This document shows, one piece after another, positions 798 to 26,691 of a stretch of 64,000 nucleotides of DNA. Source of the stretch: Alphaproteobacteria bacterium (lineage in GTDB: Bacteria > Pseudomonadota > Alphaproteobacteria > RF32 > CAG-239). The notes under the pieces are model-generated. The model was given only the letters and a program-made list of their open reading frames with translations, searched no databases and was not told where the DNA came from. Every line of letters begins with the position of its first letter. The first letter of the stretch is position 1. The translations under genes were made by a program, and so were the position numbers. The DNA is taken from contig JAFTII010000031.1 in assembly GCA_017457005.1 (NCBI GenBank), positions 746 to 64,745 on the forward strand, given 5' to 3'.

Positions 798-2408
798 TCA
801 CTGAGTTCTAACCACACTGCAAAATACACCATTACGCCCTAAAGTACCACAAACTTTATCTCCCTCAGACAACGAATCTAATTTACCGACACGTAAGTGG
901 AACAACTCTTTCCCTTGTCCGTCAGCAGGGGCATCTACAGAAAAGAACGGCTCATATTTGCCCAATTCATCAGGGTACTGAACTGTCAGCTTATCCCACA
1001 ACTTTTCAAGATTAGCAACATTATCATCTGTGCCCAGCTCAATTGAAATGTTAGAAGTATCTTCATCCGTAAAACCTGCACCATAGCCATATTCCGTCAG
1101 ATACGCCCTAGACGAAGGAGTTGCTGAATTCTTATTGGTTATCCTTTGCATTTTAGAGTAGTCAAAATTGGGGATACCGCCATTACGTCCAACTCCACTT
1201 GTTGCATATTGCGGAACAATAACTTCTCCCCCACCAACAGAGAATTCTTTTTCGCCAACAACTTGCGGGTATCCGGCAAAGGAATTAGCTTTAGCACTTA
1301 CCAGTGGTGTTTGCCCACCACCGGCATTTCCTTTTTGCATATCAGGATACGGAGGGGGAACATCCCAACTTGGAGGCAAGAAGTCTCTTGAATCAATTCC
1401 GTATTCTAATCCGGCATCATCAGCACGACGCAGTTTTATGCAAATAATGCGTTTACCGTTACGTAAAACCAAATCGCCGACACCTTCAACAATAATCAGA
1501 CGATTATCAGGTCCTTTGGTGCGGAAACCGACAGGCACTTCCACTCGCTCAACGATCATGGAGACAACAGGACGCTGCATCATGTTTAATGACTTCTTTC
1601 CTAAATCAATATATGTAAAGATATCATCTCTCCATACACGTTCAGGAGCTATAACCACATCATCAGGGTTTGGAACATAAACCTCTAAGTCAAATCTAAA
1701 CTTAGAAGGGTCTAAGGGGATACTCTTCAACCAATCGCTTTGTTGAAAACGACGTGTGTAATTAGCATCAACAGACTTTCCGCCAGAATTTACCCCTCCG
1801 GTATGAGCGCCCAATACCCCTCCGGATGCAGATCCGAAGTTTCCGTTTGCTCGCCCCTCATCATCTTTTATAACATCAATATCAATAATGGAGTTTGTCA
1901 AACGTTCGGTATTTACAGCTTCACTCTTAACATAAAATACATAACGATTTCCGGAACGTCCGAATACGATAATATTTGTATCTACCCCGACATTAGCGCC
2001 TTTACGAGGATACAACATTAATGAGTTAGGACTGGATATCTGTCCGTCAAAAGTAGCATTATCACCGATAAAAATATCTTCTACCATTTCCCATTCAGGA
2101 AAATTAAGTAAAGTGATCATTCCTTCGCGAACACGAATCGGCAAAACCAGATCCGGCGCCCAATAATAACGAGAATAAGCCGGTTTACTCTGCCCCTCAC
2201 CAAGGTTTTGCATAGGATCCAGCCACGCCTCCTGCGTCATTCCAAGAGAATTGAATCCCATATACCCCATATTCATCGGAGTATAATTTCCTTGAGCTTG
2301 ATCAGCACTGGCGTCCATCACCTGTCTGTTTACCTGTGCGGTAGCAACCGAAGAAAACAAACAACAACTCAACAATAATGATATTTTTATATTTTTAAGA
2401 AACAACAC
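798..2408 (-). CDS. Secreted 536-aa protein; positional candidate for VirB9-like outer-membrane core component of the T4SS
   Basis: N-terminal signal peptide (MLFLKNIKISLLLSCCLFSSVATAQ). Lies directly downstream of the VirB8/VirB7/VirB8 block and upstream of the VirB10-like candidate. Size exceeds typical VirB9; no motif verification was possible. Confidence 0.4.
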   Translation of the reverse strand: MLFLKNIKISLLLSCCLFSSVATAQVNRQVMDASADQAQGNYTPMNMGYMGFNSLGMTQEAWLDPMQNLGEGQSKPAYSRYYWAPDLVLPIRVREGMITLLNFPEWEMVEDIFIGDNATFDGQISSPNSLMLYPRKGANVGVDTNIIVFGRSGNRYVFYVKSEAVNTERLTNSIIDIDVIKDDEGRANGNFGSASGGVLGAHTGGVNSGGKSVDANYTRRFQQSDWLKSIPLDPSKFRFDLEVYVPNPDDVVIAPERVWRDDIFTYIDLGKKSLNMMQRPVVSMIVERVEVPVGFRTKGPDNRLIIVEGVGDLVLRNGKRIICIKLRRADDAGLEYGIDSRDFLPPSWDVPPPYPDMQKGNAGGGQTPLVSAKANSFAGYPQVVGEKEFSVGGGEVIVPQYATSGVGRNGGIPNFDYSKMQRITNKNSATPSSRAYLTEYGYGAGFTDEDTSNISIELGTDDNVANLEKLWDKLTVQYPDELGKYEPFFSVDAPADGQGKELFHLRVGKLDSLSEGDKVCGTLGRNGVFCSVVRTQ

Positions 2409-2412
2409 CTAA

Positions 2413-3135
2413 CTACTCCACCTTATTATAGGTCAATGAATATTTATCAACCGTGAATCCGACAGGATTTTTCAGCCTATCACCAAACTTAACTACTTTT
2501 CTCCGGTAACGAACACTTATAGCCGCCGTCCAATAATTAACTTCAGGCCGAACGGATTCAGGATACATATCTCTGGTTTCATACTCAACTTGCCAAATAC
2601 CATTGGCCAATTCATTAACCGAAAGTATCTTAACATCTCTGGTTAATCCGCGACTTTTAATAATATCAAGTGCTTTTTTAGCAGTATTGCGAACAAAATC
2701 ATCATAAATTCGCGGAGAAGACATTTCTTTAATCGGCCCGTCAGTACCCCAACGAGATTCCATTTCCGGAATATCGCGACTAAAAGTACTGCGCAACAAG
2801 ACATATTCCCGAACAAAGACCTCGGTTATCGCTTTTTGGCTCCGCAAACTTCCAACGATAGGGCGGATATGATAAACTTGCTCCGAACGATTTTGAAACG
2901 TCAGCAAAAACGGCTCCACACGATATAACGGCATTACCTGAAAAATAGCCAATATCAGAACTATATTGCAACATATACTAAGCGCTGTAATAATGGCAAA
3001 AGCACGTGCAGTCCACAAATAGCGTTTTTCTCCGGCATTTGCAACAAACAAATCCGAAGATGACGTATCAGGGCGCAAATTACCTCGCCCTTCTAAAAGC
3101 TTTTGTTTTCCATTCGTTCCGATTTGACTGACCAT
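2413..3135 (-). CDS. VirB8-family bitopic inner-membrane protein (T4SS), paralog 1
   Basis: 240 aa with a cytoplasmic N-terminus, one TM helix (FAIITALSICCNIVLILAIF) and a periplasmic domain ending in an NPxG motif (NPVGFTV), which is a VirB8 hallmark. Paralogous to 3442-4191 (shared VEPFLL, RNTF, RYWTA, NPxGFTV blocks). Confidence 0.6.
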   Translation of the reverse strand: MVSQIGTNGKQKLLEGRGNLRPDTSSSDLFVANAGEKRYLWTARAFAIITALSICCNIVLILAIFQVMPLYRVEPFLLTFQNRSEQVYHIRPIVGSLRSQKAITEVFVREYVLLRSTFSRDIPEMESRWGTDGPIKEMSSPRIYDDFVRNTAKKALDIIKSRGLTRDVKILSVNELANGIWQVEYETRDMYPESVRPEVNYWTAAISVRYRRKVVKFGDRLKNPVGFTVDKYSLTYNKVE

Positions 3136-3150
3136 ATACCGTTTCCTATG

Positions 3151-3339
3151 CTATATTGTTGCAACAAACCAGTCCGGAAGATTTTTAGGTAACTCAACCT
3201 CCATACAAGCACACGGAGAGAGTTTCAGCTCATTACTACCCCTACCAATACCAACCGGTTCCGGCTCATAATATGTACCAAAGCAACCGGACAATGCGAA
3301 TATAGCTATTAAAGCCAACAATTTGTAACTCATTCTCAT
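3151..3339 (-). CDS. Small lipoprotein (62 aa), VirB7-like by size and position
   Basis: Lipobox LSGC after a signal peptide. Lies between the two VirB8 paralogs, as rvhB7 does in Rickettsiales. Confidence 0.4.
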   Translation of the reverse strand: MRMSYKLLALIAIFALSGCFGTYYEPEPVGIGRGSNELKLSPCACMEVELPKNLPDWFVATI

Positions 3340-3441
3340 AATAAAATACTTTCTCTCAAGGTATCAATACTCTTATAGATATTATGAGGTTATACTCTTT
3401 TATTTTAAATGTCTAACAGCTTAATTATACTTATCAACAAA

Positions 3442-4191
3442 TTAGAAAATTTCTACTTCGGTTTGTGAGTATCTTACAACAGTAAAACCTAACGGATTAA
3501 GAAGTCTTCTAACCATAAACATTCGTTCTTTTATAAAATAAGCCGTAACTGACGCGGTCCAATAACGAACTCTTAATTCGGTCCTTTTTACTTCTGCATC
3601 GTAGTTGTTTACTAACTCATAAGTCTTAAAATCAACTTTCCAAATAGCACTTTTTTCTCCGCCTTGTTTCTTTAAACTGATTATTTCTACTTCTTTTGAA
3701 GTGGGGTCTTGAAACATATCTTGCCAACCGGCAGCAACTTTTTTGTAAAAAGCGTCGTAAACAGTAAATGCAGACAAATAATGGACAATTCCTCCGGGGA
3801 GCCAACGTGAGCGCATTTCCATCGCATCATTAATGAATGTATTGCGCAAAATAACATATTGACGAATAAAGGTTTCCATTAATTGCACTTTAGACGGCAT
3901 ATCAGATATAATCGGCTCGCTTCTGACAACCTCTGAAGAACTATCTTGGTTGATTATCAAAAAAGGCTCAACCGTTACCATCGGAGCTAAACGGAACAAT
4001 GCCAGAGATAAACTTATCAAAAACATTATGGAAACCGTAGCTGTCAAAACATAAAAACGAGACAACCACATATAGTATTTGTGTTTAAGGGTTTCCTTCT
4101 CTTTATCAAGTTTATTTAAAAACTCCGGAGCAGTTACGTTTCCAGTAATAACTTTTGTTTGAACGCCACTTTCTATTTGTTTATCTGCCAT
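3442..4191 (-). CDS. VirB8-family bitopic inner-membrane protein (T4SS), paralog 2
   Basis: 249 aa, single TM (VLTATVSIMFLISLSLALF), C-terminal NPLGFTVVRY (NPxG motif). Duplicated VirB8 is typical of Rickettsiales rvh systems. Confidence 0.6.
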   Translation of the reverse strand: MADKQIESGVQTKVITGNVTAPEFLNKLDKEKETLKHKYYMWLSRFYVLTATVSIMFLISLSLALFRLAPMVTVEPFLIINQDSSSEVVRSEPIISDMPSKVQLMETFIRQYVILRNTFINDAMEMRSRWLPGGIVHYLSAFTVYDAFYKKVAAGWQDMFQDPTSKEVEIISLKKQGGEKSAIWKVDFKTYELVNNYDAEVKRTELRVRYWTASVTAYFIKERMFMVRRLLNPLGFTVVRYSQTEVEIF

Positions 4192-4204: not shown

Positions 4205-7200
4205 TTAATAGTTAGAACAGTATGGAGCTTCTACAATTTCTGAACCGCTCACACTTTCCCATGCGTTTTCATGTGTATCTGCGGTATCTTTGTTGGCTTT
4301 TGCAGATTTGATACGCGCATCCAAATCTTCTTTACTGCCAACATCATCTCCGATATTTACCATTTCATTTTTGTCTTGCTTAAGTCGGGCAATAACATTT
4401 TTTAGAGTATCAACTCGCTCTTTTACCACTTTATTATCTGAGCTTATGTTTATATTTGCCTGCAAATTCTCTGCTGCAACAATAAGCTCAGACTTAATAT
4501 CATCCAAGCTTGAACGAATACCTTCATAGATCTCTTCATCTGACAGATCTACATCTTCAGGCTTTTTACCTTCTGCCAACTCATAACCGTAATTAGTCAT
4601 AATATCAAACAATTCCGTTATCTTTCCCTTATAACTTTCTTCGGTTTCTTCTTTTTGCTCTTTCATTGTATGTTCATTTTCTTTGTAGAACAAATAATTT
4701 CCTATTTGGTTTTTGGATAAAGGCGCCAACTCAACAGAAGCTAAATCTTTTTTATGATTTTTACTGTCCTTTTTGTTGTTTTCTTCAGCCCATAAAGTAT
4801 AAAAAGCATCATATACTTCATCTTTGAACATCAGCTTGCCGTCATCAACCGTCAGTAACACTCCTAATTCACTGTATTTGCAGTTAGATGTGGCTGTTTT
4901 TTCTCCAGTTCTGACATTAACATCCAAAGCACCATGATAGAGTTTGCTTTTTTTGATGGTGATACCTGCACATTTATACAAATTCTTATCATTACCGATA
5001 GTAGCATACTCTCCTTTATTGTTAATATCTACCGCCGTATCATAGCCTACCTTACATGGTAATGTACCCTGACGGAAAAATGTTTCTCGTTCACATCCGA
5101 TAGATAATATATCTTTTAATGATATTTTGGTCTCAACAAAGGCATAATCCCTCAAAAGATACTTCCAAACTTTTGGAAGCTCACCTCCGTAGTTCAAAAA
5201 ATCTTTTGCTTTTATCGGAGTATTTTTCTTGTTTCGGCGTTTTGTAATAGGCTTAACATTTTGAAAATCAGTGCTATCAAAATGTACAACTTCTCGCACA
5301 TTGGGCAAATGTTGCTCAAACATCGCCATCGGAGCTTTCATATCTCTGGACTTTGCAGGACTTCCGACAAAATAATCCTCTGATTCAGGAGCAGAATCTG
5401 ATCCGGCAACTTTAGCAAACATGGCAATATTATTTACCGCAGGTAATATACCGCCACTGATATTTATAACCAGTCCCCCGATTTCTGTCAGCATTTGCTG
5501 ATGGATATCAACTATTCTTGAATGATTCTTAGGATTATATAGAGCATCGCCCATATTTAAGATACGCTGCAAAGCCTTATCAATAATAGCATTCATCTGC
5601 GCATAAGAATCGCTTAATGCCGTATTGGCAACTTTTTCAAGTGATACATATACCAGTTCGGGAGTAAGCATCGGATTGGGATTTTCCTCCAAAGCCGTGG
5701 CTATGATAGCCAATAATCTGTTTTTTGATTGTTTTTTGGCACTGATTTCTGCGGCACTTAGAGTATCAGCAACTTTATCAAACAAAGCTTGTTTTTTATT
5801 ATTAATCTCTGTCATTGTTGCAGAATCGGCATCTTGCATATTTAACTTATATTCACGAATATCATCATCAATATTGTTTAATTTTTCATCCAATTGCGTA
5901 ATCTCGGCTCGTAAATTATCAGCTTTTTGATTTAAGTTCTCAACTCCCAACTCAGCCTTATTTGATTGTGATTGAGAGGTAAATTGAGAAGAAAGAGTTG
6001 CAGTTGAAGATACCCCTACAATAGGAGAACTTTGCGGAGTGGGAGCATCTATATCTGTTGGGAAAGGCTCTACATAATTAACATTATCAAGCATTGATTG
6101 TCCGGCATCTTCTTGTGCTTTATCTCTGGCTACAGACAACTCATTCAAGACATCTTTTAGTTCCGCATTTAGATTTTCAAGTTTTTGGGCAATGCCTTCA
6201 CGCTTGGCCATCAACTCTTGCAAGCCGCTATCTGTGGCCGATGAAGTAATTAACTCTTCCAGATCCGCCTCCAGTTGAGACATTAAATTTGCACGTTTTT
6301 TCTGATATGGTGTGTCAGACAAACCTATAGGGTTCCCTTCAAAATGACTTGCCATAACATTCAAAACATCGGCAATAGTAAAAGTTTTTAAATACTCTTT
6401 TATATTTTCATATTTTTTAGTCAAATATTGCTTATAAAAATTTTTTTCGTCATTCCAAACCAGTCTATCTGTACTTTTGGCATTGTTTCCCCATTTTGAA
6501 GGCTCTGCAGCCAGCATTTTAGATGCCTCTGCACCGACTTGCCAAGCAAGCATTTCTGCTCGCCGAGATTCTTCAACTTGCTTTTCTGAATTACTGGTAG
6601 TGTTTACATTTGCTTCTTCTTTACTCAGGATTTCATTTGCAACTTTATTATCAGAATCATAGACATCAGAATTTTCTGACGCGGTTTCATAATCAATATC
6701 CGGAGATTGAACATCTTCGGTATCGATTGAAGATGTTTCGGCAGCTTTTGCCGCTTCATGATATTGTATTGCCCAACCGAGTATTCCGCTTTCGCCATCT
6801 TCTCCAAAGCAAATATTTTTACATTCTTGCGCAGTAGGATTATTAAAATAACTGCAAATATAATTTGAAGTACATTGTTCAGATAATCGTAGTGCTTCTA
6901 TTGCGGCTTGATGACGAAGCCTTGTATCTCTGACACTTTCTGCAGCATGTTTATAAGCACTTAAGCCATTTATGAGGTTATGCACTTCTCTTGCACCACT
7001 GACTTTTTCTTCCAAAGGGGCTATCTTATTAAGCTCTTCCATTTGATCTTCTACACTTACGTAAGCATGTTCTGACGGAGAATCTTTGGCAACGACAAAT
7101 CCGATTACTCCATCCGGTATCTCTATTTCTTCGGTGTCATCCGCTTGTGCTGCAGCTTTTTCTTTTTCAGCGGCCAACTCTTCTTGCAAAGCCTCCTCCG

Positions 7201-8068
7201 TTGAAGTATCATCTTGTGAAACTTGGGCAAAAGATATTTCTTCTTGGTGAGAAATTACCGTAGCAAGTTCAAATTCATTATTTTTGTTCAAAAAGGCTTG
7301 TTTATCAGATGTTTTTACATAATTTAACGGCCTGATATCACGCAAAGATTTTACAGCAATATATTGTGCTTTAAGTGCGGTAACTTTTAATAGCAACTCA
7401 TATAATTGGTCAACAGCTTCAAATGCTTTACCAACAACAAATGCCGCATCATTACTGGCATCAGGAGAACCAATACCGCATGTGTTTGCATCTCCGGTAA
7501 TACAGGCAATGGTTTCATCAAGCTTGGGTCCTATATCATTGGCCATTTCTGTCTCTAGTTCTCTTATGGTCGTATATATTTCCAACAAATTATCTACATA
7601 AAAATTTTCACGGCGTGTATCATAAGATTGCATATCCACAATAGAATTAGACGGATAGCGAAGCAATAATAACTGAATTAAATCAAAAACATCTTCTGAA
7701 GAGGTATTTTTATATTCTTTTCCTAAATATACACAATTTTCTAATCCTCTCTCACCAGCAGTTTCTCCTCCGCCTTCGTTATTGCCGCCACCTCCGGACT
7801 TGCCTGCAAATGATATTATCTTATTAATATTACCGGAAAACATACTTTTCGTTGAAGCAAAAAGATTATTTGCATCAGAAATAACCTGATTACCAAAACT
7901 TTGGACTTGCGTTCCTAAATCCGTAATATTGGTAAAAATAGAGCCAACCTGATCCAAAGGGTCCATCATCGGACAGAAATCCATCGGAGGACAATACGGC
8001 ATTGCCTTTACTGCAGAACTAAAAAGCATTATTATAATTGCCGGTATTATAAGAAGATGTTTTTTCAT
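4205..8068 (-). CDS. Very large (about 1287 aa) secreted protein, acidic and coiled-coil rich with Cys-containing N- and C-terminal modules; unknown function, T4SS-operon encoded
   Basis: Start probably the ATG at 8068 (MKKHLLIIPAIIIMLFSSAVKA signal peptide), preceded by GGGGAGG and overlapping the upstream stop (TAATG). No TM helices beyond the signal peptide. Cys motifs include CPPMDFCPMM and CTSNYICSYFNNPTAQECKNIC. Confidence 0.55.
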   Translation of the reverse strand: MKKHLLIIPAIIIMLFSSAVKAMPYCPPMDFCPMMDPLDQVGSIFTNITDLGTQVQSFGNQVISDANNLFASTKSMFSGNINKIISFAGKSGGGGNNEGGGETAGERGLENCVYLGKEYKNTSSEDVFDLIQLLLLRYPSNSIVDMQSYDTRRENFYVDNLLEIYTTIRELETEMANDIGPKLDETIACITGDANTCGIGSPDASNDAAFVVGKAFEAVDQLYELLLKVTALKAQYIAVKSLRDIRPLNYVKTSDKQAFLNKNNEFELATVISHQEEISFAQVSQDDTSTEEALQEELAAEKEKAAAQADDTEEIEIPDGVIGFVVAKDSPSEHAYVSVEDQMEELNKIAPLEEKVSGAREVHNLINGLSAYKHAAESVRDTRLRHQAAIEALRLSEQCTSNYICSYFNNPTAQECKNICFGEDGESGILGWAIQYHEAAKAAETSSIDTEDVQSPDIDYETASENSDVYDSDNKVANEILSKEEANVNTTSNSEKQVEESRRAEMLAWQVGAEASKMLAAEPSKWGNNAKSTDRLVWNDEKNFYKQYLTKKYENIKEYLKTFTIADVLNVMASHFEGNPIGLSDTPYQKKRANLMSQLEADLEELITSSATDSGLQELMAKREGIAQKLENLNAELKDVLNELSVARDKAQEDAGQSMLDNVNYVEPFPTDIDAPTPQSSPIVGVSSTATLSSQFTSQSQSNKAELGVENLNQKADNLRAEITQLDEKLNNIDDDIREYKLNMQDADSATMTEINNKKQALFDKVADTLSAAEISAKKQSKNRLLAIIATALEENPNPMLTPELVYVSLEKVANTALSDSYAQMNAIIDKALQRILNMGDALYNPKNHSRIVDIHQQMLTEIGGLVINISGGILPAVNNIAMFAKVAGSDSAPESEDYFVGSPAKSRDMKAPMAMFEQHLPNVREVVHFDSTDFQNVKPITKRRNKKNTPIKAKDFLNYGGELPKVWKYLLRDYAFVETKISLKDILSIGCERETFFRQGTLPCKVGYDTAVDINNKGEYATIGNDKNLYKCAGITIKKSKLYHGALDVNVRTGEKTATSNCKYSELGVLLTVDDGKLMFKDEVYDAFYTLWAEENNKKDSKNHKKDLASVELAPLSKNQIGNYLFYKENEHTMKEQKEETEESYKGKITELFDIMTNYGYELAEGKKPEDVDLSDEEIYEGIRSSLDDIKSELIVAAENLQANINISSDNKVVKERVDTLKNVIARLKQDKNEMVNIGDDVGSKEDLDARIKSAKANKDTADTHENAWESVSGSEIVEAPYCSNY

Positions 8069-9315
8069 TATAACATACCTCCCCATCCACTGTCTTCATC
8101 GCTATCATCTGTAGAATCATTGTCGGTATTTGTAGTACCGGTTTCTGTTTCGTTATTACCGTTTTTTTTATTACTGTTGTAGCCCACTTTTTCCGGGTCA
8201 GCATAATCACACAAATTAAATTTACCAGTAACCTCTTTTAGAGCAATCCCATTAATATTGTTTACATCTTGGGCGGTTTGTGTTTTCAGATCCTCAATAA
8301 GGACATCTACCAAATTGCGTATTACTCTTATTTGATTGGCTAGCGTTTCTCCAAGCGCATTTGAAGCCTCCGACTCACCGGGATATGTTGCTGCAACATC
8401 GGCGTTTGCATCAATATTATCTTTATCTACAACCATGCTGTTGCGAAGTTTTGCCATTTTTACCAATGCCTGACCGGAACTTTCTTGCATTTGCTTAATT
8501 CTTGCTTTTTTAATCTGAAGTTCTTCTTTAATGGATACTGCGTGAGTTTTAGCAGATATTTTATCAAGAGTATCTTTTATTGCTTCATCTGCACTTTTCT
8601 TTACTTTAGAAAGTCCTTTGTCAGCAAGATCTTTAGCAATTGCGGCAGCTATGGCAGCCAGTTCGGTAGCAAGAGCTTTGACCTCTGTATCTAAAGCGGT
8701 AATTTTGCTCTTATGCTCTTCATTTAATGCAACCAATTTATTATTTTGCACTTCAACATCTTGGTTAAGTTGGTTTTCTATTTGTGTGATTTGGTTGTGT
8801 ATGCTTTCAACCCCTGCAGTATCACCTCTTGTTTCCAGTACACCGATATTTTTACGTAAAGATTCTATATCAGCATCAGCTTCGGTTTTTAAGATTTCTA
8901 TTTCTTCTTCTATAGCCTTAACATCAGCCTGATTTTGTTCCTGAGCTTTTGACTTTTGTACTTCTAATTTTGCTATTTTAGTTGAGATTATAGCTGATTG
9001 CCCGACCGGACTTTGGACTACATTTTGAACCTTACCATATATATTATTTATTTTCTCTTTCATTCCGCTAATAAAACCTTTAGCTTCTTTTGCCTTTTCA
9101 ATACCTTTTCCTACAAATTTTCCAAATTGAGAATTTTGAATACCATCTAAAATTTCTTCTGCTTTTGTTTTGATATTTTGAATAGCATTAGTAAGTTTAG
9201 ATGGAGTTTTGCCCAAATCAAATTTAACAAAAAATGCAGAAGCATCTGATGCCGAATATGTAATTGCTATAAATAAGACCAAACAGAAACTGATATATCT
9301 AAGGAGTTTGTTCAT
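8068..9315 (-). CDS. Secreted all-helical coiled-coil protein (about 415 aa); possible elongated VirB5-like or pilus-associated protein
   Basis: Likely start MNKLLRYISFCLVLFIAITYSASDASA (ATG at 9315 after GAGGAGG), overlapping the stop of the upstream gene. Long heptad-like helical sequence with an acidic C-terminal tail. Confidence 0.5.
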   Translation of the reverse strand: MNKLLRYISFCLVLFIAITYSASDASAFFVKFDLGKTPSKLTNAIQNIKTKAEEILDGIQNSQFGKFVGKGIEKAKEAKGFISGMKEKINNIYGKVQNVVQSPVGQSAIISTKIAKLEVQKSKAQEQNQADVKAIEEEIEILKTEADADIESLRKNIGVLETRGDTAGVESIHNQITQIENQLNQDVEVQNNKLVALNEEHKSKITALDTEVKALATELAAIAAAIAKDLADKGLSKVKKSADEAIKDTLDKISAKTHAVSIKEELQIKKARIKQMQESSGQALVKMAKLRNSMVVDKDNIDANADVAATYPGESEASNALGETLANQIRVIRNLVDVLIEDLKTQTAQDVNNINGIALKEVTGKFNLCDYADPEKVGYNSNKKNGNNETETGTTNTDNDSTDDSDEDSGWGGML

Positions 9316-9316
9316 A

Positions 9317-9871
9317 TTATTCGTCCTCCTCACTAATGGGGGCAAAACTGGTATTAAAGGCTCTGAGAGCTAAAAAACCTTTAAGATTAGCTATTTCCGC
9401 TTCTAAATTTGCAATTTGTTTTAGTCGTAAAGCAATGTTTTTGTTATAATCTTTAACTTCGTTTTGCAAAATAGAGGTATTGTCTTGCGATATAGATGAA
9501 AACTTTTGCAAAATTGATTTGGCACCCTCCATTATTGCACCGGCTTGTCCGGGGAGATTTACTCCATCTAGTATAGTAGTATCACTTTCCGGTGATGATG
9601 ATCCCATCATATTAGCTCTGGTAGAAATAGCATCTGCATATAATTGCGTTGCATATTGTCGCAACATTTCATTGCTTTTCTGCTCCCACGCTTCCGCATC
9701 TTCTGAACTTTTAACTATCGGAGTATTTTCTTTAACGATAATTTCAATATTACCAGAAATATCTTGCGGATCTTCTATATACGCAGGTATGTCTAAAGCC
9801 TTAGTTTCACTTATAAGGCTAAAGAACATAAGTATTACCAATAAATTTATAGGATAACAAATTTTTATCAT
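9317..9871 (-). CDS. Secreted 184-aa helical protein, T4SS operon member (VirB5-like size class)
   Basis: Signal peptide, then helical sequence ending in a coiled coil (LKQIANLEAEIANLKGFLALRA). Has a 4-nt ATGA overlap with the upstream gene. Confidence 0.45.
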   Translation of the reverse strand: MIKICYPINLLVILMFFSLISETKALDIPAYIEDPQDISGNIEIIVKENTPIVKSSEDAEAWEQKSNEMLRQYATQLYADAISTRANMMGSSSPESDTTILDGVNLPGQAGAIMEGAKSILQKFSSISQDNTSILQNEVKDYNKNIALRLKQIANLEAEIANLKGFLALRAFNTSFAPISEEDE

Positions 9872-10377
9872 GGCAATACTCCTTCAAGTGTCGGGGCTTG
9901 TAAACCCTCTACCTTGTCTTTAACGTTTTCTACATTTTCTTTAACATCTTCTACTTTGTCTTTAAAATCATCTACTTTATCTTTAATCTCTTGCCCTTTA
10001 TCTTTAACTTGATCCATAGAGCTTTTAACCGATGTCTTGAGCATATTTATTCTAGCCTGTTCCCTCTTTATAGTCTCCTCAAGTCTGGCTTTTAATCTTT
10101 TACGATGTTCGTCCATCTCTGCCTTACGCTCTTTGAAAGCTTGTAGTTTTTGTTTTATTTTGGCGCCTTTATTACCATCTCCTAATTTACCGACTTTGTT
10201 ACTGACAAATTGTTGAGCTTTTGTGGTGAATTGTTCATATTTTTCAGTAACATTTTTTAAGATGCCATTTGCGGTATCCAAAACGTTAACAATCCAATCC
10301 GTAGAGGCATAACAATTTTTGCCGCTGAACATCAGCAACATCGCTACTGCAACAAATATGGCCCCTTTCTTTAACAT
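9868..10377 (-). CDS. Secreted 169-aa coiled-coil protein carrying the same DKVEDVK heptad repeat as the 927-aa neighbour
   Basis: Signal peptide MLKKGAIFVAVAMLLMFSG. Contains repeats KDKVDDFKDKVEDVKENVENVKDKVE, encoded by 21-nt DNA tandem repeats. Confidence 0.5.
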   Translation of the reverse strand: MLKKGAIFVAVAMLLMFSGKNCYASTDWIVNVLDTANGILKNVTEKYEQFTTKAQQFVSNKVGKLGDGNKGAKIKQKLQAFKERKAEMDEHRKRLKARLEETIKREQARINMLKTSVKSSMDQVKDKGQEIKDKVDDFKDKVEDVKENVENVKDKVEGLQAPTLEGVLP

Positions 10378-10390
10378 TTATAGTCTCCGG

Positions 10391-13117
10391 TTAGATGTTA
10401 ACATTTTTCCGATTATTAATATCCGTAGAATAAAAATTATGTATTTCGGATATGTTAATCATACTTGATAATATCTCTATCAAACGTATAGAGTTTTTAG
10501 CTGTTTGAGCAGACAATTTAATTAATTCACTTTGAAGTTTATTGATATCAGATCCTTCCGCACCTTCAGATGATGCGGGGCTTCCGCTTGCGCCACCGAA
10601 TTTTGCAGTCAAAACATCTTTTTGAACATCCTCAAAGTCTCCGGCTTCAGATTTTAACTTAAATGCGGTTTCTAAGTAATGTTTATTAATTTCATGCAAA
10701 ATTTGATCTCTTACCAAAACAAAGCCATCTTCCTCTTTTAAATTTGCAAGATAGTTTTTACATTCTTCCAATTTTGCAGAATCTTGAGCTGTTTCACTGT
10801 CTAATCCGCAAACCAAAGCCATTGTCGGAGGAATAATAAAAGTATCATCCGATGATGTTCCGTTATCTTTACCTCTATTGCCGGAAATTTTAATTTTTTT
10901 CAGTTCTTCTTCGCTATAATTTCTAAAAACAAAATTTTGATAATTAAAAATATTTGTCATTGCCAACTGCGAACTATATATTTTCAGTAATGAATTTATT
11001 TGCATATCTATACCTTTAGCTAATTCTACAATATTAGCATAGGCATCACTTTTGTGGGAATCAGCCGCATACAAAACCGGTTCAACATGTTTTTCTTCAA
11101 AAGCATCAGCATCATTTATAAGTTTGAACGCATCTGCAATAACTGCCGCGGCATAACGTGCCAAAACATCCATATAGAATTTCGGCGCTTCCGAAATTGA
11201 ATCGGTTTGCGCTTTTAGTCGCTCCTCATTATATTTAACTAAACATGCATTTATGACACCTTTTTCCAGAGCATCATTTGAGCTAATATTTCCACAAGAC
11301 ATTCCCATATTTTGAGGGATAATAAACGTACCATTTACGTCTGTACCGCCATCAGGAAGGCTTAGCGCCATCGCAAAAGCCATATTATCTTGATGATGTA
11401 TATTTGCGGCAATTGTTATACTATCTTTTTCCAACATGGACTTTTGAAAAGGTTTTAACGATTGTTTCTTATCGTCAATGACCCCTTGCATTGTTTTAAT
11501 TGAAGAAAGTGTCTCATCTTTCATCGGAATTTCAGCACTGACATCTAAGTCTTTATCTATTGTTAGGACCTTTGGCGCTTCTTCTGTTGTTTCTGTGGTA
11601 TCTTCAGCTTCTGTTTCTTCAGAAGCTGAAGCTTCTTCCGTCTCACTATCCGGAGTTTGGAACGGACTACGCAAACCTGTGCTACCTTCTTCAACATCTG
11701 CCGGAAGAGGGACAGAAAAACCTAACTCGTCATCCGAGGTCTCATCTTCCGTGTCTTCTATTTCTTCTTCTGATTTGATATCTTCCGGTATTACAAGCTC
11801 ATTCGTTATTGGCGGTAATACTCCTAAGTTTGCATTTGGCATATTTAAAGTATTCATCGGAGCATTGCCATAAGGCATCGGTGTGTTTATGCTTCCGGTG
11901 GTAGAATTTCTAAACCCTCTGCGACTAGTTGGCACTCTGTTATTGTTGGTTGTTCTTGGTTTGTTAAGTGTAGTACCGGATGTATTTGTTGAAGTTTGGG
12001 GAGTGATTGAAGATGATGTATCTTCTGTGACGGTACTTTCTTCCGTTTCTTCAGAAGTAGGATCTTCTCCTTTCGTTTCACTATCCGGAGTTTGGAACGG
12101 ACTGCGTAAACCTATAGTCTTTCCTTCAACATCTGTTGGAAGAGGAACAGAAAAACCTAACTCATCATCAGCTGTATCATCTTCATCATCAGTATCTTCA
12201 TCATCCGGAAGAGGTGTCTCATTTATTGGCGGCAACATTTCTTCCCCCTCAACAATAGGCAAGCCTAAAGTGTTTGTCGGAGTATCACCATAAGGTAATG
12301 GTGTGCTTATTTCTCCGCCGGAAGGAGTTATGAAACTATTGCGACTGGGGGTTATGGGCTTAGAGCTACCGCTTGAGCCTGAATTGCTAGGCATCATGGG
12401 CGGAGTTGCTTCGGAGGTTTCCGGCGAAACCTCAGGAACAGTCGTTTGTGGGGTGGGTTCTAATACAGGTTCTTCTTCCTCGCCTAAGGCTCCTTTTGCC
12501 ATATCGGCGTAATCTTCAACCTTATCCTTAATATCTTTTGCTTGCTCTATATAGCCTTCAGCTTGAGATTTAACATCTTCTACCTTGTCTTTGATATCTT
12601 CTACTTTGTCTTTTACGTCTTCTACTTTATCTTTGACATTTTGTACAGTTGATTTAGCCTGCTCCACATAGCCTTCAGCTTGAGATTTTATGTCTTCTAC
12701 CTTATTTTTGACATCTTCTACTTTGTCTTTGACCTCATCAACCTTATCTTTAACATCTTGTACTTTTTCTTCTATTTGACTTTTATATTTATCAAATTCT
12801 TTTTTGTAGTTTTCAGCTTTTTCTTTATAGTCATTAACTTTTTTAATTGCGGCGTCTATCTTTTTCTTATTCTCTACGACATATTCTTGCACTGTTGCTT
12901 TTGCGGTTCCAATTGCAGCAGAAGTTTTTTGCACGGTTTTCATCGCGTTGATTACTGTTTGAGACTGCTGAATTTGGGTAAACCATTGCTTGATGGTTTT
13001 AATAAAGCTCATTGAATCCAAGGCAGGCAATTGAGCATAAGCACCAGAAGGAAAACTAATACACATAAAACCAGCTAAAAACATTCCGATGATGTATGTT
13101 TTTGTTTTATTTTTCAT
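10391..13117 (-). CDS. Secreted repeat protein (about 908 aa) with four parts: coiled-coil heptad repeats, a duplicated acidic Pro-rich block, a Ser/Thr/Pro-rich linker and a duplicated Cys-containing C-terminal module; unknown function
   Basis: Start ATG at 13117 (MKNKTKTYIIGMFLAGFMCISFPSGAYAQ) after GGGAGGGTGAA. Repeats VEDVKDKVEDIK; duplicated DDELGFSVPLPxDVE...GLRSPFQTPDSET; C-terminal duplicated FIIPQNMGMSCG / FIIPPTMALVCG modules. No TM helices. Confidence 0.55.
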   Translation of the reverse strand: MKNKTKTYIIGMFLAGFMCISFPSGAYAQLPALDSMSFIKTIKQWFTQIQQSQTVINAMKTVQKTSAAIGTAKATVQEYVVENKKKIDAAIKKVNDYKEKAENYKKEFDKYKSQIEEKVQDVKDKVDEVKDKVEDVKNKVEDIKSQAEGYVEQAKSTVQNVKDKVEDVKDKVEDIKDKVEDVKSQAEGYIEQAKDIKDKVEDYADMAKGALGEEEEPVLEPTPQTTVPEVSPETSEATPPMMPSNSGSSGSSKPITPSRNSFITPSGGEISTPLPYGDTPTNTLGLPIVEGEEMLPPINETPLPDDEDTDDEDDTADDELGFSVPLPTDVEGKTIGLRSPFQTPDSETKGEDPTSEETEESTVTEDTSSSITPQTSTNTSGTTLNKPRTTNNNRVPTSRRGFRNSTTGSINTPMPYGNAPMNTLNMPNANLGVLPPITNELVIPEDIKSEEEIEDTEDETSDDELGFSVPLPADVEEGSTGLRSPFQTPDSETEEASASEETEAEDTTETTEEAPKVLTIDKDLDVSAEIPMKDETLSSIKTMQGVIDDKKQSLKPFQKSMLEKDSITIAANIHHQDNMAFAMALSLPDGGTDVNGTFIIPQNMGMSCGNISSNDALEKGVINACLVKYNEERLKAQTDSISEAPKFYMDVLARYAAAVIADAFKLINDADAFEEKHVEPVLYAADSHKSDAYANIVELAKGIDMQINSLLKIYSSQLAMTNIFNYQNFVFRNYSEEELKKIKISGNRGKDNGTSSDDTFIIPPTMALVCGLDSETAQDSAKLEECKNYLANLKEEDGFVLVRDQILHEINKHYLETAFKLKSEAGDFEDVQKDVLTAKFGGASGSPASSEGAEGSDINKLQSELIKLSAQTAKNSIRLIEILSSMINISEIHNFYSTDINNRKNVNI

Positions 13118-13192
13118 TTCACCCTCCCGCAAGACTTGATAGTTTAGTATATCATAGTCCACTATTTTAACCAAGAAAATAACTTCATTTTG

Positions 13193-15622
13193 CTAAATAT
13201 TTAAATATTTTGTAACAAAGTTATCTTCTCCATATTCTTTAATAAGTTCTTCAACCAGCAAAACATTTTTGCGGCCGGAATTATACAAGCGCAAATAAGG
13301 TCCTAAGCCGCTCAAATCCACATCAAGTATTACTGACTCTCCGGTTGCCGGACGAGATAATAAAATAGCATAAGGAAAATCACGATAACTTTTACCGAAA
13401 ATAAAATCTATTTCTGAGCCAGTTAAATTCCAGTTTTCGTAGTCTTCTACCGTTGCCTGAGGATTACGGAAAAAGATAACGGTTTGACATTGTCCGCGAA
13501 TAACTTCTCCAACGCCCAAACGGTCAATAATATTCGGCTGCTGGAATGCACACAAATATGCCTGACGTTTTTTACGACCTTCTTGCAAACCAATTACAAA
13601 ATAATCTCTAAACATCGGGTGCTTAAGCATTGGAGCCGTTTCATCAATCATGATAAGCGACGGAACACCGGTTTCTCCGGTTTCTGATTGGATACGGTGC
13701 ATAATATAGCTGATAACAGCAGGAGCTAACGTTTCATCCTCAAAAATATGAGTAAAATCAAATGCCATAAACCGTTTTGCTTTAAGGTCCAAACTATCAG
13801 TATCGCCGTTAAAAATTTTTCCGTATTGATCAGGATTAACCCACTTAAACAACTCCCTACGCATATTACCGGTAGGCGAAAAACAACTTTTATATAAGTT
13901 TGTCATCAGGCGTTCACTGGGACGTAAATAATCAAAAGCGGTTGTAACCGCACGAGCTATTTCTTTCTCAGAAATGGCGTCATCAACTAATGTGATAGCT
14001 CGCATCCATCTTCTTAAAAAAGCGCGGTTATTAGCATTATTTTCACAGTCAAACGGATTAAGCGAAACATTTTTTTCATCGCCCTCAAAACCAATGTATG
14101 CGCCCCCGATAGAACGAGTAAATATTTCTGCACCGCGGTGTCTGTCAAAGAAGAATACCTTTAAGTCATGATGGCGCATGGCCTGACCTGCCAAAAAGGT
14201 AAGCAACGTTGTCTTACCTTGACCGGTAGGACCGATAATACAACAGTGGGCAACAGCAGAATCATCGCCGGAAACATGGAACTGAAACCGGTATGCTGAT
14301 CCTGATGTTGTACGAAATACTGTAATAGCTCCCTTACCCCAGTCACTTTTAGCGAATCCTTCTGACGGTTTATCAAAACAAATTGCTGCTGCTACTACGC
14401 GGGACAAATAACGATAGGTCCGAGGCAGTACTTCATAAGTCGGAAACTGATTAAAAAACGTGGCTTGAGCAACCCAACCTTCTCTAACCGGGGTAACACC
14501 GAATAATCGGCAAATTCGTTGAACTTCACTTTCGGCAAATTCAATATCATCTTTGGTATCGCCTTGTAAAAGTATTGCCATTGCATATTCGGTCAGTGAT
14601 TGGTGATTGGCATCGCTATCTTCTATTGCTCCCAAAACTTCACTATATTGGTTGATTACATCTGAAGAAAAACTGGTCATTAAAGCCATACGTTGTTGTT
14701 GCATAAGCAACGCACGAGCTTGCGGCTTGAATATCGGACGAATATTGTGCAACAATACCAGCTCACTATCTATAGAGAGCAAGGAAGTTATCATGCTTTC
14801 ATCCATATAATCTCCGGATGAACGAATCCCCATTGCTGCCGCATATTTTTCCTTATCGCCGCTAAAAAAGCGGATAAGACCGTTTTCTCCGGTAAAATGA
14901 ATATGATCAGATGTCAAAAGCTCATTAAGATGATAGCCTTCCGCACTACCGATTTTTGGTTGAGGGCGGGTTATCGGACTACATATTTTTGCGTAAACAG
15001 AAAGAGGACCATCTTCTGCAGGACTTCCTTCAGCTTCAAAAAGTGTGGTTACACCATAATCATTAAGAGTGGCTATCAATGATTGAGAGGCATAATTTAA
15101 ATCTTTGAGATTATCATCTCTATCCACTACCGAAAGAACTATATAGTGAGAATTACTATATACACGGCTAAGATTAGAACTCCATGTATTGTCAATGTTC
15201 TCCAACAAAGCATTGTCAAAGTCTTTTTTATTTTCTTCCAGTGCCACACGTTCACGCAAAGTTATAATTCGGCAAGTTATTTGTAAGTCAGACATTCCGT
15301 CAATCCATGCTTTTCGGGCTTCCATCATGGATATAACTTTTTCATCAGTGACAAAGGCCAAATCAACTCCCGTTACTTTAAAAACACGCGCTAACGAACC
15401 GTTATAGCAACGGATAGTCATGCCATCGGACAACAACTTATTAAAAGGCAAAAAGTCCGAAACACGAGACTCTCTGGGATGTGGCAACACATAGTGCCCA
15501 AACTTGGTTGCCCAAAAACCGGCAAATGCCGCAGCAGAGACGAATCCTATTGCAGCAACAATAACTTCTAACGAACTTAAGCCTTGCACGAAAGTGCTAA
15601 AAAAATCAAAATCAGGGTGCAA
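13193..15622 (-). CDS. virB4: VirB4/TrbE/CagE-family T4SS ATPase
   Basis: 809 aa with N-terminal hydrophobic segments. Walker A GPTGQGKTT, DEAW-like box IMIDETAPML, and C-terminal RKKRQAYLCAFQQPNIIDRL (the RKxN...TQS..D motif). Overlaps virB3 by 11 nt. Confidence 0.85.
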   Translation of the reverse strand: MHPDFDFFSTFVQGLSSLEVIVAAIGFVSAAAFAGFWATKFGHYVLPHPRESRVSDFLPFNKLLSDGMTIRCYNGSLARVFKVTGVDLAFVTDEKVISMMEARKAWIDGMSDLQITCRIITLRERVALEENKKDFDNALLENIDNTWSSNLSRVYSNSHYIVLSVVDRDDNLKDLNYASQSLIATLNDYGVTTLFEAEGSPAEDGPLSVYAKICSPITRPQPKIGSAEGYHLNELLTSDHIHFTGENGLIRFFSGDKEKYAAAMGIRSSGDYMDESMITSLLSIDSELVLLHNIRPIFKPQARALLMQQQRMALMTSFSSDVINQYSEVLGAIEDSDANHQSLTEYAMAILLQGDTKDDIEFAESEVQRICRLFGVTPVREGWVAQATFFNQFPTYEVLPRTYRYLSRVVAAAICFDKPSEGFAKSDWGKGAITVFRTTSGSAYRFQFHVSGDDSAVAHCCIIGPTGQGKTTLLTFLAGQAMRHHDLKVFFFDRHRGAEIFTRSIGGAYIGFEGDEKNVSLNPFDCENNANNRAFLRRWMRAITLVDDAISEKEIARAVTTAFDYLRPSERLMTNLYKSCFSPTGNMRRELFKWVNPDQYGKIFNGDTDSLDLKAKRFMAFDFTHIFEDETLAPAVISYIMHRIQSETGETGVPSLIMIDETAPMLKHPMFRDYFVIGLQEGRKKRQAYLCAFQQPNIIDRLGVGEVIRGQCQTVIFFRNPQATVEDYENWNLTGSEIDFIFGKSYRDFPYAILLSRPATGESVILDVDLSGLGPYLRLYNSGRKNVLLVEELIKEYGEDNFVTKYLNI

Positions 15623-15902
15623 ATTTATTCCCCTTTTCTTTATATAGGTTATTAGATGTTTTGGCAGACTGACCGTAAGCCTGAATCATTGCGGAAACAT
15701 GAGGCTCTTTAGCCCCGATAGCTATGCAAACCAGATGCCCGATAACCAGTGAGCCCATAAACCACAGTGGGTTAGCATTAATTGTTCCGACACACATAAA
15801 CATTATCGGAAACTGGATACCCATATTAAGCAGAACCGGTAAAAACGGCCCCCACATAATTTTAGGCGGATTAGCTACGGCTTTGAGAATAATTTCACGC
15901 AT
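15612..15902 (-). CDS. virB3: VirB3/TrbD-like small membrane protein
   Basis: 96 aa with two hydrophobic helices, immediately upstream of and overlapping virB4. Size and position are typical of VirB3. Confidence 0.6.
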   Translation of the reverse strand: MREIILKAVANPPKIMWGPFLPVLLNMGIQFPIMFMCVGTINANPLWFMGSLVIGHLVCIAIGAKEPHVSAMIQAYGQSAKTSNNLYKEKGNKFAP

Positions 15903-16067
15903 GCTTACAATTCCGACACCAGAAGGTTAATACAACATTATGATACTATTATGTTTTTTTTATGCAACACCTACGATATTTTTATCCATCTGTTTTTGAT
16001 TGCGACAAAACACAAAAGTTTCTTGTTATATGATAGCTTTTTTTTATGAATAATGAGTTAATATTTC

Positions 16068-16100
16068 GGGTGCCGGAAATGATTTATCTTTCCGGCACCC
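16068..16100. promoter_or_regulatory. Perfect 12-bp GC-rich inverted repeat (GGGTGCCGGAAA n9 TTTCCGGCACCC) between the VirB2-fusion gene and virB3
   Basis: Seen directly in sequence. Not followed by a T-run on either strand, so it is not a canonical intrinsic terminator; possibly an RNA processing/attenuation element or a protein-binding site. Confidence 0.3.
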
Positions 16101-16121
16101 AAACAGCAAACCGCTTAGTGC

Positions 16122-18389: not shown

Positions 18390-18544
18390 CGCTGTTCTCC
18401 TGTAGTACAAGGCTCTATAAAATAGAGCATACGAATCCCTTTTGATTTATTATAACACATAAATTACTTATAAAGTGTTACAGTTTTTTGATTTTTTTGA
18501 AGGAATTTTCTAAAACTAAGGCAACTGAATTTATATTAGACTGC

Positions 18545-19306
18545 CTATTCTGCCGGTACTGCCGGTGTTTCTTGATCAACCGTAACACGCCTTGTTTCAC
18601 CCAGACCCGTTTCAAAAGTATCACCATAGAAAATTGTCGTTGTATCACCGGTAATATAAGTTACAATACCTCCGGCTGCCGCCAAAGCTGCCAACCCGAC
18701 AACAAGAGCTGCAAACCATTTCCAATTAATTTTGCCAAAGATAGCTCCAAAAGCCACACCAACAAGACCAAAACCGCCAACAATAAAGATAACAATCTTT
18801 AAATCTTTAAAAGTCTTAATTCCCTTATATAAAGCTAAGGTCAGAAGGGATGTTGTTGACTCTGCAAATGTTACAAAATTGGAACTGTCTGTATTCAGAG
18901 TATCTGTAATCATATTTTGGGTAAAGCCTTTGCAGCCGATAATCATATCAACAAGTTCTCCGGTACTGGCAATAACCACCAAAGAAATAACTATCGCTCC
19001 AAGCCACTTCCAGTTTAAGTTACCAAAGAATCCTCCGACAGCAACTCCGAGGATACCAAAGCCGGCAACAATATAGATTAAATCTCTAAGACCATTATAA
19101 ATTTTTATTCCGGTACCAACCAAACCCTCAAACAAGCCGCTTGAAGTGATACAACCGGTCATGGAAGTGTCTTGAGAGTTGCCTCCGGAATTTGTACCAC
19201 CGGATGCCGGTGGGGGAGTATCCTCAGCAAACACGGGGGCAACATAAGCACCAAAAGCAAAAGACAATGCGATAAGCATATATAGATATCTTAACCCTTT
19301 CATCAT
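18545..19306 (-). CDS. Tandem-duplicated VirB2/TrbC-like pilin (two pilin units in one polypeptide)
   Basis: Likely start MMKGLRY at 19306 after GGAGG. Signal peptide, then two repeats of the hydrophobic helix, K/N-x-NWKW(F/L) loop, hydrophobic helix pattern (GFGILGVAVGGFFGNLNWKWLGAIVISLVVIA and GGFGLVGVAFGAIFGKINWKWFAALVVGLAALA). Confidence 0.5.
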   Translation of the reverse strand: MMKGLRYLYMLIALSFAFGAYVAPVFAEDTPPPASGGTNSGGNSQDTSMTGCITSSGLFEGLVGTGIKIYNGLRDLIYIVAGFGILGVAVGGFFGNLNWKWLGAIVISLVVIASTGELVDMIIGCKGFTQNMITDTLNTDSSNFVTFAESTTSLLTLALYKGIKTFKDLKIVIFIVGGFGLVGVAFGAIFGKINWKWFAALVVGLAALAAAGGIVTYITGDTTTIFYGDTFETGLGETRRVTVDQETPAVPAE

Positions 19307-19434
19307 TGCCTCCGTATTATATGTTTGTGAAATTATGTTATTAAATTTCAACCAATTTTAATTGATTGAGGTTTAATAACACCAAATTAGAAAGTAATCC
19401 GGAGAGCCGGCAAGCTCTCCGGATCTTTATAATA

Positions 19435-19854
19435 CTATTCTCCTTCTCCGCCTTCAGTGTCTCCACCAGAATCAGCGGTAACGCCAATAGCGGCACCGGA
19501 ACTAGCACCAAAAGTATCGCCATAACGACCGGTTGTTGCATCACCGGTTGCGTAAGTTACGATAGCACCGGCAGCTGCCAAGATTGCCAAACCTACGGCA
19601 AGACCGGCAAACCATTTCCAGTTAATCTTACCAAAGATAGCTCCGAAAGCCACACCGACAAGACCAAAACCACCAACAATAAAGATAATGGTTCTTACGG
19701 CTCTAAAGGTATTAACACCCTTAGATGCAGCCAAAGACATTATTGAAGTATTTGAGTTGGCAGTGCCTTGAGCTAAAGCATCGCCGGACATTCCGAGCAG
19801 AGCAAAAACTGCTACCATAAAAAATGTCCAAAAATTGTTTTTAATAAATCGCAT
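19435..19854 (-). CDS. virB2: VirB2/TrbC-like T4SS pilin (single unit, 139 aa)
   Basis: Signal peptide ending ALAQG, then two Gly-rich hydrophobic helices separated by KINWKWF, resembling the ISWMFG loop of Agrobacterium VirB2. AGGAGAA Shine-Dalgarno. First gene of the minus-strand operon. Confidence 0.55.
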   Translation of the reverse strand: MRFIKNNFWTFFMVAVFALLGMSGDALAQGTANSNTSIMSLAASKGVNTFRAVRTIIFIVGGFGLVGVAFGAIFGKINWKWFAGLAVGLAILAAAGAIVTYATGDATTGRYGDTFGASSGAAIGVTADSGGDTEGGEGE

Positions 19855-21690: not shown

Positions 21691-21731
21691 TAAGTCTTTG
21701 GAGAAGCTTGATTATTTAAAATTCAGTATGT

Positions 21732-24048: not shown

Positions 24049-24067
24049 AAGCAAAAGGAGAACCCCT

Positions 24068-26684: not shown

Positions 26685-26691
26685 ATAAACA

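Follow-up and report, generated by a model that had tools for sequence, protein, structure and literature searches.

We analyzed a 64,000-nucleotide stretch of DNA from an Alphaproteobacteria bacterium (GenBank assembly GCA_017457005.1, contig JAFTII010000031.1, positions 746 to 64,745; 'the window' below means this stretch at its full length), and in particular a gene for a 1287-residue protein located within a type IV secretion system (T4SS) operon. Sequence comparisons indicate that the protein represents a real and conserved family without annotation or a detectable homolog of known function. We favor, with a probability of roughly 45%, the interpretation that it serves a chromosomal VirB-type T4SS, present in a clade of uncultured Alphaproteobacteria from the gut, as a dedicated accessory subunit outside the cytoplasm, and that it probably occupies a distal or exposed part of the machine. 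Its predicted export, likely disulfide bonds, fixed operon position and apparent translational coupling argue for a dedicated extracytoplasmic subunit, while evolution faster than that of the core machinery, together with variable loops bracketed by cysteines, would favor a distal or exposed role.

An intact gene for a predicted exported protein

The open reading frame (ORF) lies intact on the minus strand, as a first-pass annotation of the region had claimed, and its translation is identical to GenBank entry MBQ9732371.1 (locus tag IJV97_04730). A mechanical ORF list places the start at an in-frame ATG at 8086; the N-termini of all relatives in the family alignment favor instead the ATG at 8068, which has a GGAGG sequence 9 nucleotides to its 5′ side. 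Residues 1–22 (MKKHLLIIPAIIIMLFSSAVKA) constitute a typical Sec signal, with an A-x-A cleavage site that is present throughout the family and in which A22 is kept by at least 90% of members. The signal peptide was assigned from hydropathy and the family alignment, and a hydropathy scan detected no transmembrane helix beyond it; the annotation had likewise described a signal peptide and no transmembrane helix. The protein is thus predicted to be exported by Sec, extracytoplasmic, and free of a membrane anchor.

The mature protein is strongly acidic (210 aspartate and glutamate versus 134 lysine and arginine residues, for a net charge of −76 and a pI of 4.7) and coiled-coil-type matches span approximately residues 550–830, both in agreement with the acidic coiled-coil regions described earlier. 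Its AlphaFold2 models are mainly helical, with several predicted helices of 40–70 residues and one mixed alpha/beta region. The polypeptide ends in PYCSNY and is not basic at its C-terminus.

A fixed, apparently coupled position within the operon

The operon runs in the order of three VirB2/TrbC genes, VirB3, VirB4, four genes for secreted proteins, the gene studied here, VirB8, a VirB7-like gene, a second VirB8, and VirB9/CagX, which bears out the placement inside a T4SS operon. The stop codon of the gene directly upstream overlaps the ATG by 1 nucleotide (TAATG), and such overlaps recur in distant loci (1 nucleotide in L001 and L002, 4 nucleotides in L040). The downstream virB8 starts 13 nucleotides past the stop codon. 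The arrangement points to co-transcription and translational coupling with the four other secreted proteins.

When orthologs were examined for adjoining T4SS genes, as the annotation had proposed, VirB8 was found downstream in 35 of 36 species loci and VirB3–VirB4 upstream in 34, the exceptions corresponding to contig ends. The same gene order is also present in L001, L002 and L039–L046, and each genome with this machine has the gene at that position. Across the family, three to five small secreted coiled-coil genes separate virB3–virB4 from the gene, which is strictly single copy in all 36 species. By this genomic association, the protein appears to be a dedicated T4SS component.

Size and distribution of the family

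When 1.84 billion representatives were searched exhaustively with a profile, 356 clusters (at 50% identity) were returned with E ≤ 1e-3, of which 187 had E ≤ 1e-30; the best 150 of the 356 matches, which were those listed, are all clear family members. The few named proteins among those listed are all called 'hypothetical protein', and most full-length members are about 1200–1850 residues long. An earlier word-indexed search had returned only 16 clusters, and two further word-indexed searches with alignments added no members. An alignment-based scan of one genome per species identified 36 loci with intact and collinear ORFs of 1256–1461 residues; a scan of the species genomes with the single sequence detected nothing. 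The family counts at least 356 clusters, and a minimum of 36 species carry it. Each of the 36 loci is in an uncultured metagenome-assembled genome labeled Alphaproteobacteria, proteobacterium or Azospirillaceae; the gut samples behind them were human, roe deer, rabbit and rumen. A search for literature on this clade together with T4SSs yielded nothing relevant.

The protein matched no Pfam family at E ≤ 0.01, nor did five long relatives (1632–1855 residues), and it matched nothing in NCBIfam; in these databases, then, the earlier statement that no family is recognizable still holds. A tblastn search of 72,556 plasmids was also negative. Sequence profiles against the PDB, using full-length family alignments and four domain alignments, returned only coiled-coil noise or matches at E > 0.03, and homology to a housekeeping periplasmic enzyme was not found. 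AlphaFold2 models of residues 88–1287 and 800–1125 reached mean predicted local distance difference test (pLDDT) values of 64.6 and 61.3. Foldseek comparisons, which the annotation had proposed, of both models with the PDB and of the long model with the viral BFVD gave template modeling scores of at most 0.11 (to SMC, dynein and tape-measure helices), in line with the lack of a recognizable family. Internal duplication of modules was rejected by hhalign comparisons between them (probabilities below 2%), as was paralogy with other operon proteins by blastp.

Conserved modules, cysteines and rates of evolution

The family alignment divides the protein into conserved modules separated by variable stretches, the latter being acidic linkers and the coiled coil of residues 580–840 (Table 1). 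The CPPMDFCPMM cluster and glycine-rich stretch near the N-terminus, to which the annotation had drawn attention, are indeed present; neither stands as a meaningful feature, since the former is confined to a small number of close relatives and the latter (residues 95–114) is an insertion with approximately 39% column occupancy. Residues 81–100 have a conservation of 0.14 and an occupancy of 0.39.

Within the second conserved module the invariant features are H363–N364, C399, the GISGWA motif, R502, W509, G512, E514, W538, D540, Y548, K552, Y553 and N555, and pLDDT values are 75–88 across most of it. The following acidic region matched solely SMC, tropomyosin and similar coiled coils in PDB profile searches. 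The most conserved module, residues 840–1090, contains the motifs YFVG..AK.RD.KAP, LPP.RE.FHFD.TDF.NV, DFLNYGGEIP.W and YSELG, and invariant polar residues that include H856, D909, R925, D931, D934, E979, S1066 and E1067. The carboxy-terminal P-Y-C-x-x-Y motif is found in essentially all members; its C1284 and Y1287 never vary among the 36 species, and across 60 diverse representatives their conservation is 90% or higher.

Nine cysteines are conserved: C112, C189, C197, C399, C992, C1005, C1033, C1063 and C1284. No member lacks C1005, C1033 or C1284; 35 of 36 members have C399 and 31 have C112. C189 and C197 are lost jointly in 7 of the 36 and C992 and C1063 in 6, while 19 of 36 have exactly nine cysteines in the mature protein. 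Because cysteines are lost in pairs and nine is the commonest count, the conserved residues appear to behave as expected of disulfide partners plus one unpaired cysteine. The internal cysteine motifs listed in the annotation are present in the sequence, but three of the residues involved (C405, C416 and C420) are private to the source lineage. Two loops bracketed by conserved cysteines, C1005–C1033 and C1033–C1063, vary in length (26–49 and 29–53 residues, respectively) and carry 5 of 22 inter-strain substitutions (post hoc binomial P ∼0.002).

We compared identities to the window's copies gene by gene in the same ten genomes. These were 78–94% for VirB4 (100% in the near-identical strain L001), 59–86% for VirB3 (99%), 57–81% for VirB9 (99%) and 50–84% for the two VirB8 copies (100%), versus 27–49% (98%) for the protein studied here; the four upstream secreted proteins were 19–62% identical (partial alignments for the 909-residue protein) or undetectable. 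Against L001, the ratio of nonsynonymous to synonymous polymorphism (pN/pS) was 0.30 for the gene, from small counts of 20 synonymous and 23 nonsynonymous changes; it was 0.40 and 0.37 for the 415- and 169-residue genes, and 0.00, 0.05 and 0.03 for VirB4, VirB9 and the second VirB8, respectively. The identity and pN/pS comparisons both show that the protein is selected but far less constrained than the core: it is a genuine protein-coding gene under purifying selection that evolves several-fold faster than the core genes.

Table 1. Positions in the window of the gene, its protein regions and the other operon genes
Feature	Position	Strand	Basis
Gene studied here (1287 residues; stop codon included)	4205..8068	-	Intact ORF and translation
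Predicted Sec signal peptide, residues 1–22, cleavage after VKA	8003..8068	-	Sole hydrophobic segment; A-x-A in family alignments
Variable N-terminal stretch, residues 23–115	7724..8002	-	CPPMDFCP cysteine cluster, glycine-rich insertion, C112 at its end
Conserved helical module 1, residues 105–250	7319..7756	-	C189/C197 pair, LLKVTALKAQ motif; AlphaFold2 helical hairpin
Conserved module 2, residues 320–580	6329..7111	-	Invariant alignment columns
Variable acidic coiled-coil region, residues 580–840	5549..6328	-	Conservation 0.30–0.43; long AlphaFold2 helices
Most conserved module, residues 840–1090	4799..5551	-	Alignments, joint loss of cysteines
C-terminal helical region, residues 1091–1287	4208..4798	-	Ends in P-Y-C-x-x-Y (nucleotides 4208–4225)
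Three VirB2/TrbC pilin-domain genes	16122..19854	-	Pfam TrbC matches; paralogy by blastp
VirB4 (809 residues) and VirB3-like (96 residues, two transmembrane helices)	13193..15902	-	Pfam CagE_TrbE_VirB; transmembrane scan
Three secreted coiled-coil-rich proteins (184, 169 and ∼909 residues) between VirB4 and the gene studied here	9317..13120	-	Signal peptides
415-residue secreted protein, directly upstream	8068..9315	-	Signal peptide; stop overlaps the ATG
VirB8 (249 residues), VirB7-like, VirB8 (240 residues), VirB9/CagX (536 residues)	798..4191	-	Pfam VirB8 and CagX
VirB7-like lipoprotein (62 residues)	3151..3339	-	Lipobox LSGC, SPCAC motif

A proposed role in a distal part of the machine

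We propose that, after export and oxidation, the protein would form an elongated, mainly helical and highly acidic molecule. Residues 320–580 and 840–1090 and the terminal PYCxxY could dock it to the core complex, through the VirB7 lipoprotein, VirB9, VirB8 or the giant VirB10, and the odd ninth cysteine may add an intermolecular disulfide. The VirB7-like lipoprotein has two extra cysteines in a C-x-C arrangement and the mature part of VirB9 has three; given the unpaired cysteine, the invariant VirB7-like SPCAC motif and those three VirB9 cysteines, a bond to VirB7 or VirB9 is conceivable. The VirB7–VirB9 bond of Agrobacterium provides an analogy for such an intermolecular disulfide (PMC2653234). 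The variable coiled coil and the two cysteine-bracketed loops would face outward, and the protein and the co-encoded secreted proteins might together build a distal part of the machine (a stalk extension, a surface cap or a pilus-associated adhesin) that contacts a target cell. The fast evolution and variable loops are consistent with a surface adhesin or tip protein.

A more elaborate version of this proposal is that the family and its four co-encoded secreted proteins form an undescribed distal apparatus that replaces the VirB5 tip or stalk, in which hypervariable loops in residues 840–1090 would bind a receptor and the terminal cysteine would be tethered by a disulfide to the VirB7/VirB9 outer-membrane complex, giving these uncultured bacteria with small genomes a specialized contact device for host, protist or bacterial cells. 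We regard this full version as unlikely.

Several points weigh against a distal or exposed subunit. We infer its location, partners and exposure, and no structural match places it in the machine. Confidence in both AlphaFold2 models is low, and the most conserved stretch (residues 897–982) falls below a pLDDT of 50; because of that low confidence, the shape of the protein is uncertain and a hidden enzymatic fold is possible. The higher rate of change might stem from relaxed constraint on a spacer in the periplasm rather than from exposure, and the pN/pS values come from few changes. The loop-enrichment statistic was picked after viewing the data, with n = 22 substitutions, and the disulfide suggested for the odd cysteine is speculation.

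Alternative explanations

The main rival is that the protein is purely a periplasmic scaffold or spacer on the core complex or stalk, neither surface-exposed nor adhesive, which we consider somewhat unlikely. The Sec signal, the disulfides and the lack of an anchor would suit such an add-on, as would the fixed position adjoining virB8, virB7 and virB9, and the long modeled helices could bridge the periplasm. An oversized VirB10-like protein (1493–1893 residues) and an additional bitopic protein (1100–1305 residues) encoded by these operons would also fit an expanded periplasmic architecture. Expanded T4SSs have species-specific extra subunits of this sort, such as Cag3 and CagM in Helicobacter and DotF and DotH in Legionella. 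Set against this, core subunits here are 57–94% conserved versus 27–49% for the protein, and variable-length loops bracketed by cysteines are more typical of exposed binding surfaces; neither point is decisive.

The protein could alternatively be a secreted substrate, toxin-like or host-interacting, that Sec would deliver to the periplasm and the T4SS would afterward release, much as the Ptl system releases pertussis toxin. Pertussis toxin subunits have Sec signals and disulfides, as this protein appears to; its rapid evolution also fits, and the lack of a VirD4 coupling protein in the operon or the window would suit a system for periplasmic cargo, although VirD4 may be encoded elsewhere in the genome. 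We judge this quite unlikely, given a single-copy gene that is fixed and apparently translationally coupled within a structural operon in 36 species, conservation of length and modules across 356 clusters, and the absence of a detected toxin or enzyme domain. The annotation's suggestion of a large effector is also unlikely. Classical T4SS effectors are cytoplasmic substrates, encoded at variable genomic positions and recruited by a C-terminal signal or a coupling protein, and they carry neither Sec signals nor conserved disulfides; the Sec signal, conserved disulfides, non-basic C-terminus and fixed, coupled operon position all speak against such an identity.

A periplasmic assembly factor or enzyme, acting in cell-wall remodeling or in a chaperone-like manner and replacing the missing VirB1 with a diverged fold, seems improbable. 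No VirB1/SLT gene was found within the virB2–virB11 operon, and residues 840–1090 hold many invariant polar residues, two points in its favor. Searches of Pfam, NCBIfam and the PDB, even with domain profiles, gave no hydrolase match, however, and a protein of 1287 residues that is mostly helical and coiled coil is atypical of such enzymes; a protein with an SLT domain is, moreover, already encoded in the window. That protein, a lytic transglycosylase and possible VirB1 analog (39658–40401, plus strand), lies 20 kb from the operon.

Finally, an artifact or decaying gene, whether a fusion of pseudogene fragments (named in the annotation as a reading to exclude) or an unrelated envelope protein sitting in the operon by chance, is effectively refuted: the only sign of it is metagenome assembly L045 (2025–5847), where the gene is split into two overlapping ORFs of 599 and 692 residues by what may be a frameshift or assembly error in a single case, whereas across 36 species and 356 clusters the gene is unbroken, collinear and of full length, has a pN/pS of 0.30, and shows conserved cysteines, conserved termini at both ends and invariant synteny.

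Neighboring genes and the rest of the window

The tandem VirB2/TrbC paralogs comprise a protein of 139 residues, one of 268 residues with two pilin domains, and one of 755 residues in which a secreted coiled-coil part of approximately 470 residues is fused to a pilin domain. For the secreted coiled-coil-rich proteins upstream of the gene studied here, Pfam gives coiled-coil noise alone; those of ∼909 and 169 residues have a common repeated coiled-coil unit. The first of them after VirB4 (10391–13174, minus strand) differs from its counterpart in L001 (5384–7678) by a large indel (∼909 versus 764 residues; 84% identity over 62%). The VirB7-like lipoprotein escapes a 90-residue ORF cut-off and is highly conserved in the clade (SGCFGSYYEPEPVG...LSPCAC...LPDWFVATI).

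The window matches contig L044 identically over 12.4 kb, and in that contig the operon continues (11600–21214) with a repeat-rich bitopic protein, a 1493-residue VirB10-like protein and a 322-residue VirB11-like ATPase. Orthologs of the VirB10-like protein carry a TrbI domain. The gene after virB9 (1–797 of the window, minus strand, continuing into L044 at 11621–15695) encodes an intact bitopic protein of 1158 residues in L001; in the source strain it matches in two frames, with an N-terminal part that is 77% identical, a pattern pointing to either a frameshift or rearrangement of a repeat region. The VirB10-like protein carries, in its N-terminal part, repeats that also occur in the product of this gene. 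A VirB6-like polytopic protein, VirD4 and a relaxase were found neither in the operon nor in the 64-kb window, and the operon contains no recognizable VirB5.

The remaining window encodes chromosomal housekeeping functions (YidC, ribosomal protein S1, Cmk, a DnaJ-like protein and tRNAs). Divergent from the T4SS operon is a type IVb pilus cluster (20152–30928, plus strand) with a PilN-family secretin (22423–24048), a TcpQ-like protein, a T2SSE ATPase (26692–28383), a T2SSF platform protein and two PilS/bundlin-like pilins (29530–30928). A second T2SSE-family ATPase, of 321 residues, is encoded at 56877–60432 beside genes for thioredoxin-like, VWA, PP2C phosphatase and protein kinase proteins. 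Located amid the housekeeping genes, at 50175–51149 on the plus strand, is a gene whose product is homologous to the ELM1 family of mitochondrial fission proteins (Pfam Mito_fiss_Elm1, E 7e-71).

Significance

Most of what is understood about T4SSs comes from a handful of model machines, and it is the lineage-variable parts that decide what a machine touches and delivers. Here, a large unannotated family is an obligatory-looking T4SS part in Alphaproteobacteria of the gut, none of which has been grown in culture. The operon, in place of a recognizable VirB5 and VirB6, encodes five secreted proteins; it also has three VirB2 paralogs, two VirB8 copies and a giant VirB10. As an exposed contact element, the protein would point to the partner cell of these bacteria and extend the range of T4SS architectures; were it only a periplasmic spacer, the family would still be structurally new and deserve a Pfam entry, though of specialist interest. 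We infer its function, and regard the family as a new form of the accessory subunits that particular T4SSs are already known to have.

Comparison with known secretion systems

The annotation had placed the protein roughly where TraN-like adhesins or VirB6-extension domains occur in other systems, and neither identity is borne out. TraN of F-type systems is also large, exported and rich in conserved cysteines, lies within a T4SS cluster and may act in cell contact. It has approximately 600 residues, however, with many more conserved cysteines, and is not predominantly coiled coil; moreover, the protein has no Pfam TraN match, and its neighbors VirB3, VirB4, VirB8 and VirB9 are of the P type rather than the F type.

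A VirB6/TrbL identity, including that of the RvhB6 paralogs, would call for a polytopic inner-membrane protein with at least five transmembrane helices; it was rejected on the grounds that the signal peptide is the sole hydrophobic segment and that Pfam gives no TrbL match. The gene arrangement does recall the rvh system of Rickettsiales, in which tandem VirB6 paralogs follow virB4 and the order virB8–virB7–virB8–virB9–virB10–virB11 is found (PMC4676284, PMC2653234). In the operon described here, VirB8 copies likewise flank a VirB7-like gene, several large genes lie between VirB4 and VirB8, and there are multiple VirB2 paralogs. RvhB6 proteins, in contrast, carry a TrbL/VirB6 domain and are polytopic in the membrane, whereas the protein and its four neighbors have a signal peptide only and no TrbL match. 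The two VirB8 copies are 34% identical to one another, compared with at most 19% for those of rvh, and a specific relationship to Rickettsia RvhB8-II is not supported, since both match Bartonella VirB8 structures best. Because the genes after virB4 encode soluble secreted proteins and the VirB8 copies are 34% identical and ordinary, the resemblance is confined to arrangement and does not imply common descent.

VirB5/TraC/TrbJ proteins, minor pilins and tip adhesins, have some features in common with it: they too are secreted, helical and fast evolving, with a gene that follows virB4 and a possible role in cell contact. VirB5 proteins have approximately 220 residues and form a three-helix bundle with a globular appendage (PMC2653234). 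Identity with them is not supported, since neither the protein nor its relatives match Pfam PF07996 and its length is 1287 residues. Should this operon hold a VirB5-like gene, the better candidate would be the one that directly follows virB4; the mature N-terminus of its product (QLPALD...IKQW) recalls VirB5/TrbJ, and one ortholog has a sub-threshold PF07996 match (E 0.13).

By analogy, we consider the closest functional counterparts to be the lineage-specific Cag accessory proteins of Helicobacter. CagH, CagI and CagL are pilus-associated, Sec-exported proteins with a common conserved C-terminal motif, and Cag3 and CagM are extra subunits of the core complex. The protein differs from them in host clade and machine, is five to six times the size of CagH, CagI and CagL, shows no sequence similarity to them (no Pfam family was matched) and ends in a motif of its own, P-Y-C-x-x-Y. 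It nevertheless shares with the Cag accessory proteins a Sec signal, the lack of a homolog in the VirB archetype, a gene located between VirB4-like and VirB7/VirB8-like genes, conserved cysteines, and a conserved motif at the extreme C-terminus.

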